13,487 nucleotides of DNA from Thermoplasmatales archaeon SW_10_69_26 (lineage in GTDB: Archaea > Thermoplasmatota > SW-10-69-26): contig PXUB01000007.1 of assembly GCA_003009755.1 (NCBI GenBank), positions 46,941-60,427 on the forward strand. Reading direction: 5' to 3'. Position numbers and translations under genes: made by a program. How positions within the stretch are numbered: the stretch's first letter is position 1; each line of letters starts with the position of its first letter. The notes beneath the pieces were generated by a model. It had not been told where the DNA came from, searched no databases, and saw only the letters and a list, made by a program, of their open reading frames with translations. Shown here in pieces: positions 5,022 to 13,297 of this stretch.

Positions 5022-5555
5022 CTATAAGGTTGTCGCCGCGACGAGGAAGAAGCCGAGCCCGGCGACCAGAACGAGCAACGAGGCCCGGAACCGTCGAGCT
5101 GTGCGTTCCAGCAGTTCTTCCTCTCTGGCGGCCGAGATTCGGTACGTCCGGACCAGCTCCGCCTTGAGCTCGTCCCCGGTGACGTCGAAATCGAGAGCTC
5201 CCGCGAGCGTTTCGGCGTCGACGCCCCCGGCCGTCCCCCGTTTCAGGTAGGCCGAAACCCCGATCACGGTCGAGGCGACCATCGAGGCGAAGCCTGCGAT
5301 CATGGGGAGACGGACGAGCGGCGACCCTCCCAACGACTCAGCCTCTTGGAAGAGAGAAACGATCGGTACGAACAGCCCCAGCATCAGGACGTTGAACCGG
5401 ACGATGCCCTGGATCCGGTCGTCCATCTCCGAGATCGCCTCGGAGAGAGCATCGACCCTGTGCTTCGCCTCTTCGTAGAGGAGCTGCACCGCATCCTCTG
5501 TCGGTCGGTGTCCTCCTTGACCCACGTCGTCTCTTGTCGCCGCTGTTCCCTTCAT
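5022..5555 (-). CDS. 3-TM membrane protein (about 177 aa) with helix-TM-TM-loop-helix-TM layout
   Basis: Start moved to ATG 5555 (or GTG 5525), because the upstream ORF-track extension overlaps DinB and is junk-like. Three hydrophobic segments, preceded by LYEEAKHRVDALSEAISEMDDR. Confidence 0.75.
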   Translation of the reverse strand: MKGTAATRDDVGQGGHRPTEDAVQLLYEEAKHRVDALSEAISEMDDRIQGIVRFNVLMLGLFVPIVSLFQEAESLGGSPLVRLPMIAGFASMVASTVIGVSAYLKRGTAGGVDAETLAGALDFDVTGDELKAELVRTYRISAAREEELLERTARRFRASLLVLVAGLGFFLVAATTL

Positions 5556-5617
5556 CTTTCTCCGGGGACGACGCTGACCTCGGCGGCTGTACGCGGCCAA
5601 CCCGCCCTCTGACCTGG

Positions 5618-6140
5618 TCAGGGGTGGGCCGCCGGCTCGGCCTCGTCGGTCGTCAGCTCTGTCCCGTACCGGGGCCAGTCGACCGGCGGGGGTTCCACGC
5701 TCTGCGACCAGAGGATCGAGAGCAGCTCGCCGCGGTGCCACTGTTCGTGGGTGAAGATCGTGAACAGCGCCTCCTCGGGCGTGAGGGCCTCGCGTTCGAA
5801 GCCCTCGATCTCGACATCGAGGTGGCGAAGCCGCTGCATCTCCTCAGGATCGAGGTCGTCGACGACCTCGTGCGTGTAGGCGCGGACCGCCTGGAGGTGG
5901 TCGATCACGGGCTCGGTCCAGCGGTCCTTCGAGGGGCGATCCCACGCGAAGCTCTCCCCGGCGATCAACCGCGCCCAGCTCTTCTCGACGTTGCCGACGT
6001 GCGTCGGCGGCCAGCGGGGTGTAGAACGAGCACTTGTAGTCGCGCGTCAACAGCTCTGGGTCCATCGAGCGCAGCTCGGGGAACCACCGATCGTTGAGCT
6101 GATCCGAGAAGACCAACAGCCGCTTGGCCGAGAGGGACAG
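5618..6140 (-). pseudogene. DinB/YfiT-superfamily protein, frameshifted at about 6005 and lacking a canonical start
   Basis: The N-terminal frame (LSLSAKRLLVFSDQLNDRW...SFYTPLAA) joins the C-terminal frame (THVGNVEKSW...HEQWHRGEL...PPPVDW) across a stray base at 6005. The His triad typical of DinB is present. Reconstructed length is about 174 aa. The likely start position is CTG 6140. Confidence 0.75.
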
Positions 6141-6204: not shown

Positions 6205-7116
6205 TCAGCGCCGGGCTCGGACGATCGCGACGTGGGGCGCCCCGACCCGGCTGTCGGCGTCGACGAGGCCCGCGCCGGCGAGCGCGTCGGTCAACCGCTC
6301 GTGGAGGTCGGCGGCCAGCTCGGCCTCGCCGGCCTCCCGCTTGCGCACGGTCGCCGCCAGCACCGCCGCCAGCCAGCTGGCCGTCAACCGGTCGCTCTCG
6401 CGGGCCGGAGGCAGCTGCACGGGCGAGCCCACGACGCCCTCGGCCAGAAGCTCGCCCAGGTCGGCGACCCCAGCGGCGGCCAGCGTCTCCCGGTAGCCGG
6501 ATCGTCGTCGCCAGGCGGTGACGTCGGGGAACCGGACCGTCCGGCGGGGGCGCTTGGCGGGTGGCCACTCGCCCCAGGGGCGGGTGACCTCGGCCGAGGC
6601 GAAGGAAAGCTGCCAGGCCTCGGGGTCGGGGCGGTGGAAGACGAGCGAACCGCCGAGCGAGGGCAAGCGGGCGTCGGCCAGGATCCGCCTGGGCGGGGTC
6701 ACGTTGCCGGCCGGCGCGATCGCGGGCCGCCGGTGCAGCAGGTCCCAGTGGTAGACGTTGAAGCGAGCGCGCGCCAGCGGCACGTCGCCCGCCACCGCCG
6801 GCAACGGGCCCGGGCGCCGGCGAGCCTGCAGCAGGCACACGCGGAGGTCGGGCGGGTCCGTGGACGTGTATGTGACGACCAGCAGGTCGGCCAGCTGGCT
6901 GCGTCGCTCGTCCGCAGGCAGCTCGTCGTGGGGCCTGAAGTCGACGAAGGCGCGCTGGCCGCGATGCGTCTCGGCGGCGAGGTCGCCGGCTTCCCCGATC
7001 GCGGGCAGGGCGGCCATCCAGGCCTCGAGCAGCTCGTCCTCGTGGAGGCCGGGCTCCCCGGCGGTGGCTTCGCTGAAGGCGTCGGCGAGGGGCTGACCCG
7101 GCGGTGTCTCGCTCAC
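6205..7116 (-). CDS. Hypothetical protein with a degenerate PD-(D/E)XK restriction-endonuclease-like motif set (303 aa)
   Basis: ETH...AFVDF...SQLADLLVV...RVCLLQAR...FNVYHWDLLHRRP resembles the H...ELxDLL...QAK nuclease-like pattern. Divergent from the 7245 gene. Confidence 0.6.
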   Translation of the reverse strand: MSETPPGQPLADAFSEATAGEPGLHEDELLEAWMAALPAIGEAGDLAAETHRGQRAFVDFRPHDELPADERRSQLADLLVVTYTSTDPPDLRVCLLQARRRPGPLPAVAGDVPLARARFNVYHWDLLHRRPAIAPAGNVTPPRRILADARLPSLGGSLVFHRPDPEAWQLSFASAEVTRPWGEWPPAKRPRRTVRFPDVTAWRRRSGYRETLAAAGVADLGELLAEGVVGSPVQLPPARESDRLTASWLAAVLAATVRKREAGEAELAADLHERLTDALAGAGLVDADSRVGAPHVAIVRARR

Positions 7117-8543: not shown

Positions 8544-8651
8544 CCGCGCCCCGCCTAGGTCTGTCACCCCTGACCGGTAACACCGATCGCGAAGCCGCCC
8601 TCACGATGAGGTTTTCGCTCGGTCCCCACGGCCTGCGGGGGAGGTCGTACC

Positions 8652-8826: not shown

Positions 8827-9711
8827 GTGGCGGGGTCCCTGACGGGACCGCAAGCTCGCTGGGAGGGGGACCAAGCGAAGGCTGCCGGGTATATCCGATA
8901 CAGTACGATCGACCAAGACCACGAGCGCGAGACGGGTGTCGACGCCCAGCTTGAGAGCATCAAAGAGCACTGCCGCCAGCAGGGCCACGAGCTCGACCGG
9001 GTCTACAAGGACGTCAAGTCGGGCCGCAACGTCGACCGAGCTGAGTTTTACGAGCTGCTCGACTGCGTGGCAGACTACGACGTCCTCGTCACGCGCGAGA
9101 TCTCGCGCTTCGGTCGTGACAAGGACGGCGTCAGCCAGGCCTATCTCATCCAGAAAGCGCGCGCCGCCGGCGTCATCGTCGAGACCACGGACGGAAAGGC
9201 GTTCGACCTTGAGGACCGCTTTGATCGGGCCTTCTTCAAGATGCTCGGCATCATCGCCGACCTCGAGGTCGGGTCGCTCGAGGAGCGCGTCCGCGAGGGC
9301 AAGCGCGAGGGCGCGAAGGCCGGCTACTGGGTGAGCGGCACGCCGCCAACCGGATACGAGACCGAGGGACCCCAGGGCCAGAAGGTGCTTGTCCCGAACG
9401 AGAACGCCGCCTACATCCGACAGATGTTCGAGCGGTACGTCCAAGGCGAGAGCATGCGGGATCTCGCCGCCTGGTTCCGCTACGCCGAGGCCGACCTTCC
9501 CTCCTCCCAGCCCTCGATCGGCAACCTCATCCGAAACCCGGCGTACAAGGGCAAAATCACCTGGAAGGGCGAGATCAACGAGGGCCAGCACGACGGGATC
9601 GTCAGCGAGGCGCTCTGGGAGGCCGCCCAAGACATACGCGAGGGCCGCCGGCGGACCTACCAGTGCTGGGACAAGGGCCTCGACGATGACGGGGAGAACG
9701 GCTCAGGGTAG
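8827..9711 (+). CDS. Serine recombinase/integrase (resolvase catalytic domain plus recombinase domain, no zinc-ribbon C-terminus; 294 aa)
   Basis: YIRYST catalytic Ser motif, DVKSGRNVDR, SRFGR, PPTGY, IRNPAYKG and HDGIVSEALWEAAQ. GGAGGT SD 6 nt before the GTG. Confidence 0.92.
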   Translation: MAGSLTGPQARWEGDQAKAAGYIRYSTIDQDHERETGVDAQLESIKEHCRQQGHELDRVYKDVKSGRNVDRAEFYELLDCVADYDVLVTREISRFGRDKDGVSQAYLIQKARAAGVIVETTDGKAFDLEDRFDRAFFKMLGIIADLEVGSLEERVREGKREGAKAGYWVSGTPPTGYETEGPQGQKVLVPNENAAYIRQMFERYVQGESMRDLAAWFRYAEADLPSSQPSIGNLIRNPAYKGKITWKGEINEGQHDGIVSEALWEAAQDIREGRRRTYQCWDKGLDDDGENGSG

Positions 9712-10008
9712 CTTGGCGAGCACGACGATGTCGTCCTCGAAGGCGCGGCCGACGTAGACGTCGGCGGGGCGCTTGAGCTCGTCGTCGAGCTGTTCGGTCG
9801 CCTTCTCCCCGCTCTCCCACTCGACGGTGATGCCGTCGGGGTTCTCGACGACCTCCCACCAGCTCGGGCCGGCGAGGACGAGCACGCGGGCGCCCTCCCA
9901 CGAGCTGGGGGCTCGCGCGACGCCGGCGCTGTTCGCTCGGGTGAGCTTGACGGCGTCGACGGGAATCTTGTCCGTCCCCGCGGGCTCGTACTCCTCTCGG
10001 GCTGGCAC
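9703..10008 (-). CDS. Small beta-rich protein with two DUF2080/AbrB-like repeats (101 aa)
   Basis: VKLTRANSAGVARAPSSWEGARVLVL and KRPADVYVGRAFEDDIVVL. Its stop overlaps the recombinase end by 9 bp. Confidence 0.65.
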   Translation of the reverse strand: MPAREEYEPAGTDKIPVDAVKLTRANSAGVARAPSSWEGARVLVLAGPSWWEVVENPDGITVEWESGEKATEQLDDELKRPADVYVGRAFEDDIVVLAKLP

Positions 10009-10034
10009 GAGCCCCCGTGAGGGCGAGGATGGGC

Positions 10035-10313
10035 TTAGTCGCTTGGGTCACGGACGAGGATGGCCTCCTCGCCCTCGAGGCCCTTCGCGATGTAGAGCTG
10101 CGGCGGCCCGGTCCCGCCCCAGGGCGTGGCCGTGTGCTCGTAGGCGACGTCCGCGGTCACGGTGACCTGGTCCTCGTCGACGTCGACGTGGATCGTGTAG
10201 TCGCCGTCGGGCACGAGCACGTGGATCGGGTCGCCCTGCCAGTCGGTGGGAGCGTACACGCGCCGGCTGGCGGGCACGGTGCGTCTCTCGACTGCGCTGC
10301 CGGTGACGGTCAC
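10035..10313 (-). CDS. Small beta-rich protein with two DUF2080/AbrB-like repeats (92 aa), probable paralogue of the 9703 gene
   Basis: RRTVPASRRVYAPTDWQGDPIHVLV and EHTATPWGGTGPPQLYIAKGLEGEEAILV. GTGA overlap with the upstream micro-ORF. Confidence 0.7.
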   Translation of the reverse strand: MTVTGSAVERRTVPASRRVYAPTDWQGDPIHVLVPDGDYTIHVDVDEDQVTVTADVAYEHTATPWGGTGPPQLYIAKGLEGEEAILVRDPSD

Positions 10314-10405
10314 GCGCCTCTCTCCTCGAGGCGTTGGTCGATCTGCTCGAACACGGGCCGCAGCTCGCTCGCCGGGCTTCCTCGGCGCCCGCTGCTATCC
10401 GGCAT
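10310..10405 (-). CDS. 31-aa micro-ORF (MPDSSGRRGSPASELRPVFEQIDQRLEERGA)
   Basis: ATG 10405 overlaps the end of the zinc-finger ORF, and its TGA overlaps the next GTG. It exactly fills the gap in the operon. Confidence 0.5.
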   Translation of the reverse strand: MPDSSGRRGSPASELRPVFEQIDQRLEERGA

Positions 10406-10547
10406 CGTCCCCGACCCCCGCGAGGAGGCTGTCCAGGTGCTTCTCGCGGCACGCGCGGCAGAGGTCGCGTTCGCGCTGGCCGATCGTGATCGAGGCGGTC
10501 GGCGTGTTGCCGCAGGCTTCGCAGACGAGTTTCTCCTGCTCAGGCAT
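10395..10547 (-). CDS. 50-aa zinc-finger microprotein (CEAC...CRAC)
   Basis: MPEQEKLVCEACGNTPTASITIGQRERDLCRACREKHLDSLLAGVGDDAG contains two CxxC pairs. Overlaps both neighbours. Confidence 0.7.
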   Translation of the reverse strand: MPEQEKLVCEACGNTPTASITIGQRERDLCRACREKHLDSLLAGVGDDAG

Positions 10548-10620
10548 CCTCGGGCGCCTCCACCTCGGAGGCGGCTTCGACCTCGGCGCTGCCCTCCAGC
10601 GTCACGCGGAACCGAGGCAT
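10540..10620 (-). CDS. 26-aa micro-ORF (MPRFRVTLEGSAEVEAASEVEAPEDA)
   Basis: TGATG overlap with the nuclease stop and ATGCCTGA overlap with the next gene. Contains a VEAxSxxEA pattern reminiscent of DpnD/PcfM-like small proteins. Confidence 0.5.
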   Translation of the reverse strand: MPRFRVTLEGSAEVEAASEVEAPEDA

Positions 10621-11813
10621 CAGGCGTCCCTCCGTTGGATGTACGTGTACCCGTTGCGGGTCTGCTTCTCCTCGAGGCAGGCGGACAGCGCGTTCCCGTG
10701 CGCCTCGAGGTCGGGCGTGTCGATGGCTTCGAGCGCGTCCTGCAACCGTTCTTCGTCGAGCCGGGTCTCGGTCCCGATCTCGATGCCCTCGATCCCGGTC
10801 AGGCCCAGGTCGTCCAGCCGCTCGGCGAGGCCCTGCTCGTCCGTCACGGTCGCAGTCGGCACGTCCTCTCGATACGCGTCGAGGTTCTCGTCCGTGTGTT
10901 CGTCGAGGAGCTTGCGCGCCTTCTCGACGTCGAGCTCCTGCTTCGTGCCCGGGCTGTTGTAGACGGCCTGGTACGGGCCGACCACGATGCTGTCCTCGAC
11001 GGTCTTGGCCTGGATCTCGTGGATTTTCTCGCGCTTCTCGTCGTAGGCCTGCTCGTGCTGTTCCTTCTGCTCCTTGGCCCAGCCCGCCTCCATGACGAGC
11101 TCGTGCAGGTCCTCGGGCGCCTCGACGAGATCGTCCAGCGCGGCCTCATCCGAGGTAACCTCGTCCGTTGTGGAGCCATCCGGCTCCCAGGTCCCGGCCA
11201 CCATGGCGCGCACCATCTGACCGTACTCCTCGTAGGCCTGCGTCATGCGCTGCCCGACACCGTCGCCGTCGAGCCGGATCGCCTCCCACTCGAGGCCGCG
11301 GCCGCCCCACCAGTCCACGATCAGGGTCTCGACCTTGTCGACGCCGAGCACCTCGCTCGCGGGGTTCCAGTCGCCGTCGGGCGTGCGGGCTTCGCCGCGC
11401 TCAATCGCCAGCGCGTAGAGCGCGAGCTGGTCGAGGTAGTCCTCCCGCTTGTCATCGGTGAGCTGGTAGCTGCTGCTCGTCTTCAGGTCCCGCAGCGCGC
11501 CGTCCGGCGTCAGACAGTCGAAGTGCCCGTGCCAGTACAGTCCACCGGTCTCGGGGATCTCCAAGCGGACCTCGGTCTCGCCGTTCGGCGCGTCCCCGTA
11601 CACGGTCTGGTGGAGCACCGTGCCCTTGGCGCGGGATCCCTGATCCTCGTCCTCGGGCAAGGGCTTGCCCCGGATCCGCATGCGCGTCAGAGTCGGGTCC
11701 CACGTCATGGTGCTGATGCCGAGGTGGTCGTCGTCGGGCCGCCCGGGATGCGTGTCCACCGCCTCTTGGAGCCGCTTGCGCGCGAAGTCGGGAGCCTCCT
11801 CAAGGATCCTCAC
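10620..11813 (-). CDS. RecB-type PD-(D/E)XK nuclease (phage recombination exonuclease-like) with coiled-coil C-terminal extension (397 aa)
   Basis: KGTVLH...EVRL...GHFDCL...DLKTS...QLALYA motifs. GTGA-coupled to the upstream ERF gene. Confidence 0.85.
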   Translation of the reverse strand: MRILEEAPDFARKRLQEAVDTHPGRPDDDHLGISTMTWDPTLTRMRIRGKPLPEDEDQGSRAKGTVLHQTVYGDAPNGETEVRLEIPETGGLYWHGHFDCLTPDGALRDLKTSSSYQLTDDKREDYLDQLALYALAIERGEARTPDGDWNPASEVLGVDKVETLIVDWWGGRGLEWEAIRLDGDGVGQRMTQAYEEYGQMVRAMVAGTWEPDGSTTDEVTSDEAALDDLVEAPEDLHELVMEAGWAKEQKEQHEQAYDEKREKIHEIQAKTVEDSIVVGPYQAVYNSPGTKQELDVEKARKLLDEHTDENLDAYREDVPTATVTDEQGLAERLDDLGLTGIEGIEIGTETRLDEERLQDALEAIDTPDLEAHGNALSACLEEKQTRNGYTYIQRRDA

Positions 11814-12739
11814 GAGGACCCACCCCCGAGTGTGGCCTTCTCCTTGAGACCCTGGAGCTTCTCGATCATCGCACCCGCCTCGTCCATCGTCCTCGGCTTG
11901 CCGCGCATCGCGTTGCTGTCGAATGGGTTCGCGTCATCCTCCATCTCGCCGGCGCTCGTCGGGACGCCCGCGTTGCGGCACTCCTCCCGCAGGTCTTGGA
12001 TGAACTCGAGCTGGGGCCCACTGGGGTCCTGCCCGGTCGACGACTGGGACTGCTGGGTGCCCTGCCCGCTGCCGGGATCGGCGTCGACCTCGACGTCCCC
12101 GCTCTCGAGCAACAGCATCTTCGACAGGGCGTAGCGGAGGAGCTGGGATTCGAGCGCGTAGTGGTGCTTGTCGCCGGCGTTCTCGTTCTCGCCGACGACG
12201 CGGCGGCCCATGCGGCTGTCGCCGTCGGTCAGGTAGACCTCCATGACGGCCGTCACGCACCAACGCTGGTTCCCGCTGCCCGTGGTGCCCGACGGCTGCT
12301 TATAGGTGTCGACGATGCTGCTGTGCACCCAGACGTCCGCCTCGGCCAAGGGTTCGGCGACGGCGCCGTTCACGTCGTCGTAGGTTGAGTACTCGTGGTC
12401 GATGTGGCTGTTGTACCCGCTCTTCGGGATCGTGCCGATGTTCTGGCGGGCCTCGCACACCTTCTCGATGAGCGCAGGGCTGGGGTCGCCGAGCGGCGTG
12501 CTGCCTTGGACGCGGAACCGCCAGGTCTCCTCGCCCTCGGGGCCCTGGTCCTTGCCCATGTCGAAGGGGCTGCTGGGCTTGGTCTCGGTGACCTGGACCT
12601 CGCGCACCGTGCGGCCGTCGACGGCTTGCAGGATGTCGTCGATGACCATCTTGGCCTGGCTCTGTGTGAGGCTCTCGCCTGCGTCGTCGATGTCGTCGGT
12701 CTCCCCGTCCGCGGGCGTGGCTTCTTCGGTCTCCGTCAC
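11810..12739 (-). CDS. ERF-family single-strand annealing protein (about 309 aa)
   Basis: IPKSGYNSHIDHEYSTYDDV...PLAE...GDK...A...LRYALSKML is an ERF-like core. Start moved to GTG 12739 (GTGA overlap, GGGGTGG SD). Confidence 0.85.
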   Translation of the reverse strand: MTETEEATPADGETDDIDDAGESLTQSQAKMVIDDILQAVDGRTVREVQVTETKPSSPFDMGKDQGPEGEETWRFRVQGSTPLGDPSPALIEKVCEARQNIGTIPKSGYNSHIDHEYSTYDDVNGAVAEPLAEADVWVHSSIVDTYKQPSGTTGSGNQRWCVTAVMEVYLTDGDSRMGRRVVGENENAGDKHHYALESQLLRYALSKMLLLESGDVEVDADPGSGQGTQQSQSSTGQDPSGPQLEFIQDLREECRNAGVPTSAGEMEDDANPFDSNAMRGKPRTMDEAGAMIEKLQGLKEKATLGGGSS

Positions 12740-12855
12740 GGGTCCACCCCCTGGCGCCAGCGAGGGTCGCTGCGGTCGAACAGCCACACGGTCTCGACCT
12801 GGAGCGTGGTCGGCGTGTCTTCCTCGAGCTCGCCGATCGCGTGCTGGCGTGCCAT
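12736..12855 (-). CDS. 39-aa micro-ORF (MARQHAIGELEEDTPTTLQVETVWLFDRSDPRWRQGVDP)
   Basis: TGATG overlap upstream, GTGA overlap downstream, GAGGAGGG SD. Confidence 0.6.
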   Translation of the reverse strand: MARQHAIGELEEDTPTTLQVETVWLFDRSDPRWRQGVDP

Positions 12856-13058
12856 CAGGCTCCCTCCTCGATGGGGATGAGGACGTGGATCAGGTCGTCC
12901 CAGAACGCCAGGTCGACCCCCTCTTCCCGCATGGTGCCCGTCTCGCCGAGCACGGCAAGCACGGCCTCGTGCTCGCCGCGGGCGATTTGGAGCTCGACGG
13001 CGAGCTCGTCGTGCCCGTGGTAGGGGCTCGGTTCGATGGAGCATCCGATGCTCGGCAT
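12855..13058 (-). CDS. Hypothetical acidic protein (67 aa)
   Basis: TGATG overlaps at both ends and acidic composition. Confidence 0.65.
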   Translation of the reverse strand: MPSIGCSIEPSPYHGHDELAVELQIARGEHEAVLAVLGETGTMREEGVDLAFWDDLIHVLIPIEEGA

Positions 13059-13297
13059 CAGGCGGCCCCCTGCTGGTAGTCGATGACCTCGAGGTTAACG
13101 CGCTCGTCGCCGCGCCCGGGTGTCTCGTCCCAGGCGAGGACGGCGGGGCAGTCGTCGCACGTGGCCCGGACGGAGATGACGTCGGGCTCGAGCTGCTCGC
13201 GGTCGATCACGCGGCAGGACTCGTGCAGGCACGTGTTCGGCTCGGGCGGCTTGAGCCGGCGTCGTTCGGCTCGTCGTAGGTTCGCGTCGGCGTACAT
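13058..13297 (-). CDS. Zinc-ribbon-like protein (CxH...CxxC; 79 aa), first gene of the operon
   Basis: CLH...CDDC pattern. GGTGA SD before ATG 13297. Confidence 0.7.
   Translation of the reverse strand: MYADANLRRAERRRLKPPEPNTCLHESCRVIDREQLEPDVISVRATCDDCPAVLAWDETPGRGDERVNLEVIDYQQGAA

Follow-up and report, generated by a model that had tools for sequence, protein, structure and literature searches.

A tandem pair of small, rare genes beside a short serine recombinase in a putative archaeal provirus

The 13,487-nt stretch of DNA analyzed here (the window; Thermoplasmatales archaeon SW_10_69_26, contig PXUB01000007.1, positions 46,941 to 60,427) carries two small minus-strand genes in tandem, here called P1 and P2, which converge on a short serine recombinase gene at the edge of what looks like a provirus. 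The window has a G+C content of 70% and forms the final 13.5 kb of a contig (C7) in a 2.8-Mb genome assembly of 49 contigs that is 95% complete. An initial annotation of the same DNA had placed the pair at 9703-10008 and 10035-10313, and exactly these limits were recovered; that the pair adjoins the integrase and closes the early operon was likewise borne out, with the 3' end of P1 overlapping the recombinase gene by 9 nt. The features on which the argument rests are as follows.

9703..10008, minus strand: P1, an acidic, predicted all-beta protein of 101 aa; last cistron of its operon; GTG start with GGGGG 4 nt upstream
10035..10313, minus strand: P2, a 92-aa distant paralog of P1; GTG start with GGAGAGAGG upstream
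9874..9918, minus strand: P1 motif 1, residues 31-45 (ARAPSSWEGARVLVL), a DUF2080/AbrB-like beta-P-x-x-W-x-G-beta element; pattern match
9718..9759, minus strand: P1 motif 2, residues 84-97 (VYVGRAFEDDIVVL), a beta-loop-beta element; pattern match; strands at 82-85 and 94-99 in the model
10215..10259, minus strand: P2 motif 1, residues 19-33 (VYAPTDWQGDPIHVL); pattern match; hhalign P 0.0045 against DUF2080
10056..10097, minus strand: P2 motif 2, residues 73-86 (LYIAKGLEGEEAIL); pattern match; aligned to P1 motif 2
8827..9711, plus strand: short serine recombinase, 294 aa; PF00239 (8.2e-25), PF07508 (4.3e-14) and phrog_95 integrase (4.4e-59)

The gene pair and its setting

P1 and P2, each single-copy in the genome, are genuine genes as judged from codon-position composition and from full-length P1 homologs with conserved ends. 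The G+C content at first, second and third codon positions (GC1/2/3) is 0.74/0.47/0.92 for P1 and 0.72/0.47/0.94 for P2, a pattern that matches the neighboring genes, and the alternative frames overlapping P1 and P2 have the inverted pattern. The GTG start of P1 is corroborated by the N-termini of its homologs, which read MPAR.EYEPAG and MPEWEPAG. Upstream of the pair, on the same strand, lie the genes listed here in the order of their transcription.

13058-13297 and 12855-13058, minus strand: two small open reading frames (ORFs) at the start of the operon
11810..12787, minus strand: Erf-type single-strand annealing protein, 325 aa; PF04404 (9.7e-10) and phrog_155 (1.2e-16)
10620..11813, minus strand: PD-(D/E)XK exonuclease, 397 aa; PF12705 (9e-5, over the cut-off) and phrog_2139 exonuclease
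10540-10620, minus strand: 26-codon micro-ORF (MPRFRVTLEGSAEVEAASEVEAPEDA) between the exonuclease and zinc-ribbon genes
10395..10547, minus strand: 50-aa zinc-ribbon protein with four cysteines (CxxC...CxxC); weak generic zinc-ribbon matches only

Cistrons in this early operon overlap or are closely spaced. The Erf stop codon overlaps the exonuclease start, and the zinc-ribbon gene is followed by an 81-nt gap, P2, a further 26 nt, P1 and then the convergent recombinase. Because of this spacing, and because no AT-rich promoter-like stretch was found within the 81-nt gap upstream of P2, we assign P1 and P2 to the Erf/exonuclease/zinc-ribbon operon as its last two members. P1 and the recombinase gene are convergent, and no T-run terminator was seen on either strand where their 3' ends overlap. 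The micro-ORF at 10540-10620 is possibly a micro-gene under translational coupling, as it begins with an ATG overlapping the stop codon of the exonuclease (TGATG), ends in a stop that overlaps the zinc-ribbon start and has GC-rich third codon positions. The zinc ribbon at 10395-10547 is a stand-alone protein in the operon that holds P1 and P2, near a recombinase that itself has no zinc-ribbon domain. We considered whether it might be that recombinase domain supplied in trans and set the idea aside, as its matches are to generic ribbons and none is to the recombinase-type ribbon.

The element looks like a tailed provirus. The final 99 nt of the window's contig (13389-13487) are identical, in the same orientation, to the final 99 nt of contig C22, whose end (positions 68963-80962 of that contig, locus L078) holds genes of virion type, one of them with a weak match to a tape-measure family (phrog_305, E 0.0016); the provirus is probably split across contigs at a repeat or variant node. 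The host is archaeal, given the haloarchaeal-type families (HVO_0163 helix-turn-helix, DUF7521) in genes neighboring the element. Two host-side minus-strand ORFs, at 6205-7116 (303 aa) and 5022-5741 (239 aa), have no Pfam family, and the GC3 of the latter, 0.74, is below that of its neighbors, which leaves that gene call doubtful. The only public sequencing run found to contain DNA of the window (run X1) is labeled as a halite metagenome, and no RNA run was listed among the runs searched for this DNA.

Relationships and predicted fold of P1 and P2

Both motif patterns proposed in the initial annotation are present letter for letter in P1 and in P2, spaced 53-54 residues apart. Written as regular expressions, the two patterns each matched twice among the 5.63 million residues that the genome yields in six frames, in P1 and P2 only; as the expressions were derived from P1 and P2 themselves, these counts speak to specificity and not to significance. 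BLASTP of P1 against P2 aligned the first motif only (E 0.017), a semi-global alignment of the two scored z = 3.8, with 4 of 2000 shuffles reaching its score, and an hhalign comparison of the three-member P1 family with P2 gave P 5.8e-5 and a probability of 66% over 80 columns (P1 19-101, P2 7-90). On the strength of this 80-column match and the shuffle-tested alignment, P1 and P2 are distant tandem paralogs. A further proposal, that each protein is internally duplicated, is not borne out by sequence: hhalign matched the N half of the P1 family to its C half at P 0.12, a score that 29 of 100 column shuffles also reached. The best local alignment of the two halves of the P1 family does pair motif 1 with motif 2, and at both motifs the strands follow G-(D/E/x) elements (QGDPIHVL and LEGEEAIL in P2, EGARVLVL and FEDDIVVL in P1). 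In cradle-loop barrels, a duplicated beta-beta-(alpha)-beta unit with a GD-box-like G-(D/E)-x-hydrophobic element gives rise to internal two-fold pseudo-symmetry. The GD-box has been described as a hallmark of cradle-loop barrels (PMC11258233).

The pair had also been called DUF2080/AbrB-like, and this description stands in part: an N-terminal element of about 25 residues resembles the DUF2080 core, but family membership by hidden Markov model (HMM) fails, there being no Pfam match at E <= 1. We compared both proteins by hhalign with a DUF2080 profile built from 21 domains of genomes of the same phylum and with an AbrB/MazE profile built from 24 domains of the window's class. The P1 family aligned with the DUF2080 core in register (P1 21-45 with profile 21-45; P 0.005), at a score of 18.0 against a shuffle mean of 9.4 and standard deviation of 1.8 (z 4.7), and P2 aligned over residues 15-38 (P 0.0045; z 3.4); no shuffle among 100 column shuffles reached the score in either case, and the P1 family and P2 taken together gave P 0.0055. 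Against AbrB/MazE, the P1 family scored P 0.005 over 17 columns, with 1 of 100 shuffles reaching the score. The profile comparison hints at a DUF2080-type core in both proteins and at likeness to AbrB/MazE in the P1 family, with no AbrB signal for P2. For scale, the same rough comparison matched DUF2080 itself to AbrB/MazE over this element at P 0.013, a signal of much the same strength as that between the pair and DUF2080. Weakly but reproducibly, therefore, the N-terminal beta-turn-beta-P-x-x-(W/Y)-x-G-beta element appears DUF2080-like, and the kinship it suggests is remote.

DUF2080 itself turned up in 40 of 201 phylum genomes, with no occurrence among the 21 genomes of the window's class. 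It is multi-copy and often lies within the first ~120 nt of contigs, with 12 matches in one genome (G035), 8 in another (G053) and, in a third (G159), 6 that all fall at contig positions 7-120, a pattern of copy number and contig-end location that fits carriage on insertion sequences.

An AlphaFold2 model of P1, computed from a three-sequence alignment, is a beta barrel of nine strands with no real helix, at a mean predicted local distance difference test score (pLDDT) of 79.4 and a predicted template modeling score of 0.66; P2, folded alone, gave a pLDDT of 42, unusable for a fold search. Foldseek searches with the P1 model against PDB and BFVD returned nothing at E <= 0.001 (best E 0.04; cupins and dUTPases at template modeling scores of ~0.3). 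In a search of 48,161 chains that did not depend on Foldseek, the best full-length match to the P1 model was PhS018 (2GLW), at Z 4.5 and a root-mean-square deviation of 3.1 A over 70 of 92 residues (model 15-101, chain 1-86). The next matches, at Z 3-4.2, were phage-tail barrels, ribosomal L3, ferredoxin-reductase FAD domains and periplasmic adaptor proteins. No AbrB, MazE or SpoVT chain was among the structural matches to P1, with which such a fold is still compatible. Published work describes PhS018 as a highly two-fold symmetric RIFT protein and places it, as an archaeal intermediate, among the relatives of AbrB-like barrels (PMC11258233, PMC4333400). The match would agree with the small symmetric barrel pictured in the initial annotation, but every Z value obtained lies below the level usual for models with no true match. 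The fold predicted as most likely for P1 and P2 is a small closed barrel of the cradle-loop group, either RIFT or its swapped-hairpin relatives.

Few relatives of the pair could be found. Among 1.84 billion cluster representatives, full HMMER searching recovered two full-length relatives of P1, P0003 (103 aa, 54% identity, E 4e-28) and P0004 (99 aa, 54% identity, E 2e-26), neither with a match in Pfam (E <= 1), PHROGs, NCBIfam or PADLOC. The only further hits, P0005 (3345 aa) and P0006 (1527 aa), were rejected as P1 relatives: they are fibronectin-III-like repeat proteins whose score is the sum of 12 short stretches against P1 28-72. For P2, no homolog appeared in word-based, ESM Atlas, tblastn, six-frame or related-locus searches. 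Word-based searches with P1 and P2 returned only the query proteins themselves, ESM Atlas gave nothing usable (the best P2 feature score, 0.78 to Ig_halo clusters, is at chance level), and when the PDB was searched by sequence, all matches to P1, to P2 and to the P1-family and DUF2080 profiles were due to chance or to repeats. Neither protein matched any of 50,697 phage records by tblastn. Searches of viral and metagenome contigs with the P1-family alignment located no close relative, nor did related-locus searches with P2 and with the exonuclease. For genome comparisons we used 21 genomes of the window's class and 401 of its phylum; six-frame searches of these sets with P1 and P2 found no credible relative in the other 400 genomes, the best matches (per-genome E 0.002-0.009) lying inside large unrelated frames and being about as many as chance would give over 400 genomes. 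From these searches the P1/P2 family is tiny and new, and the literature searched on DUF2080 and on archaeal serine recombinases, supplements excepted, describes no such gene pair.

The short serine recombinase and the edge of the element

The recombinase has the nucleophile Ser26 and the conserved Arg residues and is the only Resolvase match in the genome. The initial annotation had described it as an integrase without the usual C-terminal domain, and we agree: there is no Zn_ribbon_recom (PF13408) match at E <= 1, and the protein ends 20 residues past its Recombinase domain. Its nearest relatives, P0008 (301 aa, 62% identical, on a 36,769-nt contig) and P0009 (251 aa as called, 63% identical), are just as short, with the same two domains and likewise no zinc-ribbon domain. 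Searches of genome, metagenome and viral contigs with the recombinase and its alignment located no close relative. The final ~53 recombinase residues (~242-294; window 9550-9711) are near-identical to those of P0008, despite 62% identity overall, which suggests a mosaic junction within the 3' end of the gene.

ORFs with only the Resolvase and Recombinase domains occur in 65 of the 401 phylum genomes at E <= 1e-20, in open frames of 261-455 aa that are mostly below 335 aa, and are found in 13 of 14 genomes of one family (f7) and 29 of 48 of another (f8; loci L013-L041). The short enzymes thus look like a widespread archaeal recombinase type, within a group of enzymes that, in the words of a 2021 review, "were never fully investigated" (PMC8371274). 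These counts bear on the proposal that P1 and P2 stand in for the missing integrase domain. Equally short enzymes are present in 65 of 401 genomes and relatives of P1 and P2 in none of the other 400, and since the short form generally occurs without them, P1 and P2 do not appear to be substitutes for a lost domain; shortness seems to be a trait of the recombinase lineage and not a defect repaired by P1 and P2, which disfavors substitution. The expected co-occurrence of short serine recombinases with DUF2080 also failed to materialize, with 1 of 40 DUF2080-positive genomes (G040) carrying both, on different contigs.

In one genome of the same family, a 129-aa minus-strand ORF (1676-2065 of locus L013) converges on a short recombinase 34% identical to that of the window, with a 4-nt overlap, and has a weak sigma-70 region-4-like helix-turn-helix match (E 0.007) that is below the cut-off. 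The P1 homolog P0004 is recorded on 3 contigs, the longest of 20,897 nt, and both figures are the same for the recombinase homolog P0009; given this agreement, the two probably share contigs.

Assembly of run X1 points to the edge of the element some way upstream of the recombinase.

8580..8615, strand not assigned: probable host/element junction (attachment-site, att, crossover region), ~210 nt upstream of the recombinase start; contig breaks in run X1

Contigs of this run end and overlap at 8580-8615, one continuing leftwards and two continuing rightwards into unlike sequence, and loose ends are also present before 8580 and behind 8615. We regard these positions as the likely host/element junction and att crossover. 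The contig alternatives there hint at empty-site or excised forms coexisting in the sample. A related element is also present in run X1: one contig diverges before 9350 into sequence encoding P0008-type residues, and the depth of a shared 148-nt contig over 9578-9725 comes close to the sum (23 vs 9). Position 9739 is linked to 10401, and 10453 to 12129, by a 2,977-nt contig of depth 11.7, at a likeness of at least 85%. This related element may lack P1 and P2 or carry diverged versions of them, with the qualification that joints of low likeness can stem from other organisms.

Possible roles and comparison with known systems

From genes that are real, paralogous, rare and placed last in an early operon, and from their weak DUF2080-type element, we infer a working model in which P1 and P2 form a co-expressed, probably heteromeric provirus factor of cradle-loop-type small barrels that binds DNA or a protein partner and is made together with the early recombination genes, a reading to which we give a probability of roughly 40%. 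Under this model, P1 and P2 would be translated as the last two early-operon cistrons of a tailed virus integrated in a halite archaeon and would be produced when that operon fires. Each protein would offer an N-terminal element of the DUF2080/AbrB/MazE half-barrel kind and a second beta-loop-beta element 53-54 residues downstream, and the two would work jointly as a DNA- or protein-binding accessory or regulatory factor. The operon transcript would also read antisense into the integrase gene, as the genes are convergent and no T-run terminator marks their overlap. That the proteins are barrels, that they form heteromers, that they bind DNA and that they are in any way linked to recombination are predictions.

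A number of results weigh against the model. Neither P1 nor P2 belongs to any family in Pfam (E <= 1), PHROGs, NCBIfam or PADLOC; PF09853, the DUF2080 family (gathering score 21.5 bits), had no match at E <= 10 in a six-frame scan of the whole genome, and the three loci that PF04014 matched at E <= 1e-5 all lie elsewhere in the genome. The profile similarity to DUF2080 and AbrB spans just 17-26 columns at an hhalign probability of ~7%, and P2 against AbrB/MazE gave P 0.19, with 33 of 100 shuffles reaching the score. The five AlphaFold2 models of P1 had pLDDT values of 79.4, 64.9, 50.7, 42.0 and 40.5, so that a single one is confident; a phage tail-tube domain matched the P1 model as well, at Z 5.1 in a second structural search, and all of its structural matches (Z 4.5-5.1) fall under the level the aligner usually gives for models without a true match. 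K21, K69 and R88 are the only invariant basic residues among the three P1-family sequences, which is thin for a DNA binder, and any contact of P1 and P2 with DNA, with one another or with the recombinase is hypothetical.

Foremost among the alternatives is that P1 and P2 are early protein-binding accessory proteins (host-takeover or anti-defense factors, inhibitors or MazE-like neutralizers) unrelated to site-specific recombination. The end of an early operon is a usual place for such genes in phages, a tiny and fast-evolving family is typical of genes in an arms race, and both proteins combine strong acidity with a scarcity of conserved basic residues. The acidity is general among the proteins of this halophile, however, and so says little; moreover, neither PADLOC nor PHROGs gave a match, and no toxin-like partner gene lies nearby. 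DUF2080-type domains have been described as antitoxins and as partners of MazF-like domains, that is, as MazE-like binders of toxins or MazF domains (PMC10440598; bioRxiv 10.1101/2024.05.08.593097). We consider a host-takeover or anti-defense role of this kind possible if tentative, and nearly as likely as DNA binding.

A second alternative is that P1, P2 or both act directly on the short recombinase as a directionality or accessory factor, enabling excision by attL x attR recombination and possibly supplying the zinc-ribbon/coiled-coil role in trans. Known small recombination directionality factors (RDFs) of serine integrases vary widely in sequence, many of them being ORFans, and the genomic arrangement is suggestive: the pair ends the early operon and touches the gene of an integrase that has no zinc-ribbon/coiled-coil domain, P0004 and P0009 are probably on common contigs, and the 34%-identical short recombinase in the genome of the same family is likewise met convergently by a small ORF. 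Yet the directionality of characterized large serine integrases and its reversal by RDFs are reported to run through coiled-coil motifs of the zinc-ribbon domain (PMC5499577, PMC3783163, PMC11722253), and as this target of known RDFs is absent from the recombinase of the window, an RDF here would need a different mechanism. Distribution speaks against the idea as well, because the short enzymes of 65 of the 401 genomes come with no relative of P1 or P2 in the other 400, canonical DUF2080 shares 1 of 40 genomes with them and on separate contigs, and neither PHROGs nor Pfam shows likeness to an excisionase or RDF family. We judge such a role unlikely. The fuller version of it, in which a heteromeric cradle-loop pair binds the short integrase, the att sites or both and sets the direction of recombination without the coiled-coil/zinc-ribbon domain, is a little less likely still.

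Similarly improbable is a role for P1 and P2 as accessory subunits of the Erf/exonuclease module, such as a single-strand DNA binder or a nuclease modulator. Co-transcription with Erf and the PD-(D/E)XK exonuclease would fit, and a small beta-barrel, if the model is right, would suit an OB-like binder, but the 81-nt gap and the zinc-ribbon gene intervene before the exonuclease, there is no likeness to SSB, Gam or other recombination families, and no relative of P1 or P2 is found in the Erf modules of the 14 phages whose Erf genes the window's Erf matched by tblastn. Finally, that P1 and P2 are chance open frames or decaying remnants, as the lack of family matches and the many long open frames of GC-rich DNA might allow, is very improbable in view of their GC3 of 0.92 and 0.94 with a GC2 of 0.47, like neighboring true genes and unlike overlapping frames, their full-length homologs with conserved ends and their hhalign-backed paralogy.

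The locus thus presents an archaeal short serine recombinase at the edge of a tailed provirus, without the domain that governs directionality in the integrases of bacterial phages and beside two small genes that call for an explanation. Should the pair prove to steer recombination one way or the other, directionality would here be achieved without the domain required by all characterized serine-integrase RDFs, and the pair would be the first accessory factor of an archaeal serine integrase; control of the enzyme by the pair would offer a new way to steer serine recombination and a compact toolset. If the pair does not control the enzyme, P1 and P2 would represent a rare, fast-evolving viral accessory family of distant AbrB/DUF2080-like ancestry, of interest mainly for the evolution of cradle-loop barrels.

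Among known proteins, DUF2080 (PF09853) has a core of the form G/N-S-x-x-V-x-x-P-x-x-(Y/W)-x-G-x-x-x-x-V that aligns in register with the pair (P1 21-45, P2 15-38) and is likewise encoded on archaeal mobile DNA, but it is a single domain of ~50 residues in open frames of mostly 50-90 aa, whereas P1 and P2 are twice that size with an extra C-terminal half; it is also often multi-copy and at contig ends, in contrast to the single-copy, provirus-borne P1 and P2. The AbrB/MazE/SpoVT domain (PF04014), found in small beta proteins that bind DNA or toxin, starts with a beta1-turn-beta2-P-K-x-W segment that aligns with P1 24-40, but AbrB domains are dimerizing halves of ~45 aa and P1 is modeled as a single barrel of ~85 residues. 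PhS018 of Pyrococcus horikoshii, itself a protein of unknown function, is similar to P1 in size and is archaeal too; sequence identity is 11%, the structural Z lies below the noise bar, and PhS018 is internally symmetric whereas no symmetry was detected in the P1 sequence.

On the recombination side, large serine recombinases have in common with the window enzyme the Resolvase catalytic and Recombinase domains, Ser26 and the conserved Arg residues, but carry a zinc ribbon and coiled coil where the window enzyme stops ~20 residues after the Recombinase domain. Their RDFs, which include SprB, A118 gp44 and TP901-1 Orf7, as well as phiC31 gp3, are, like P1 and P2, small, phage-encoded, diverse in sequence and sometimes encoded beside the integrase gene; they share no sequence likeness with the pair, and they act on the coiled-coil/zinc-ribbon domain, which the recombinase of the window does not have.

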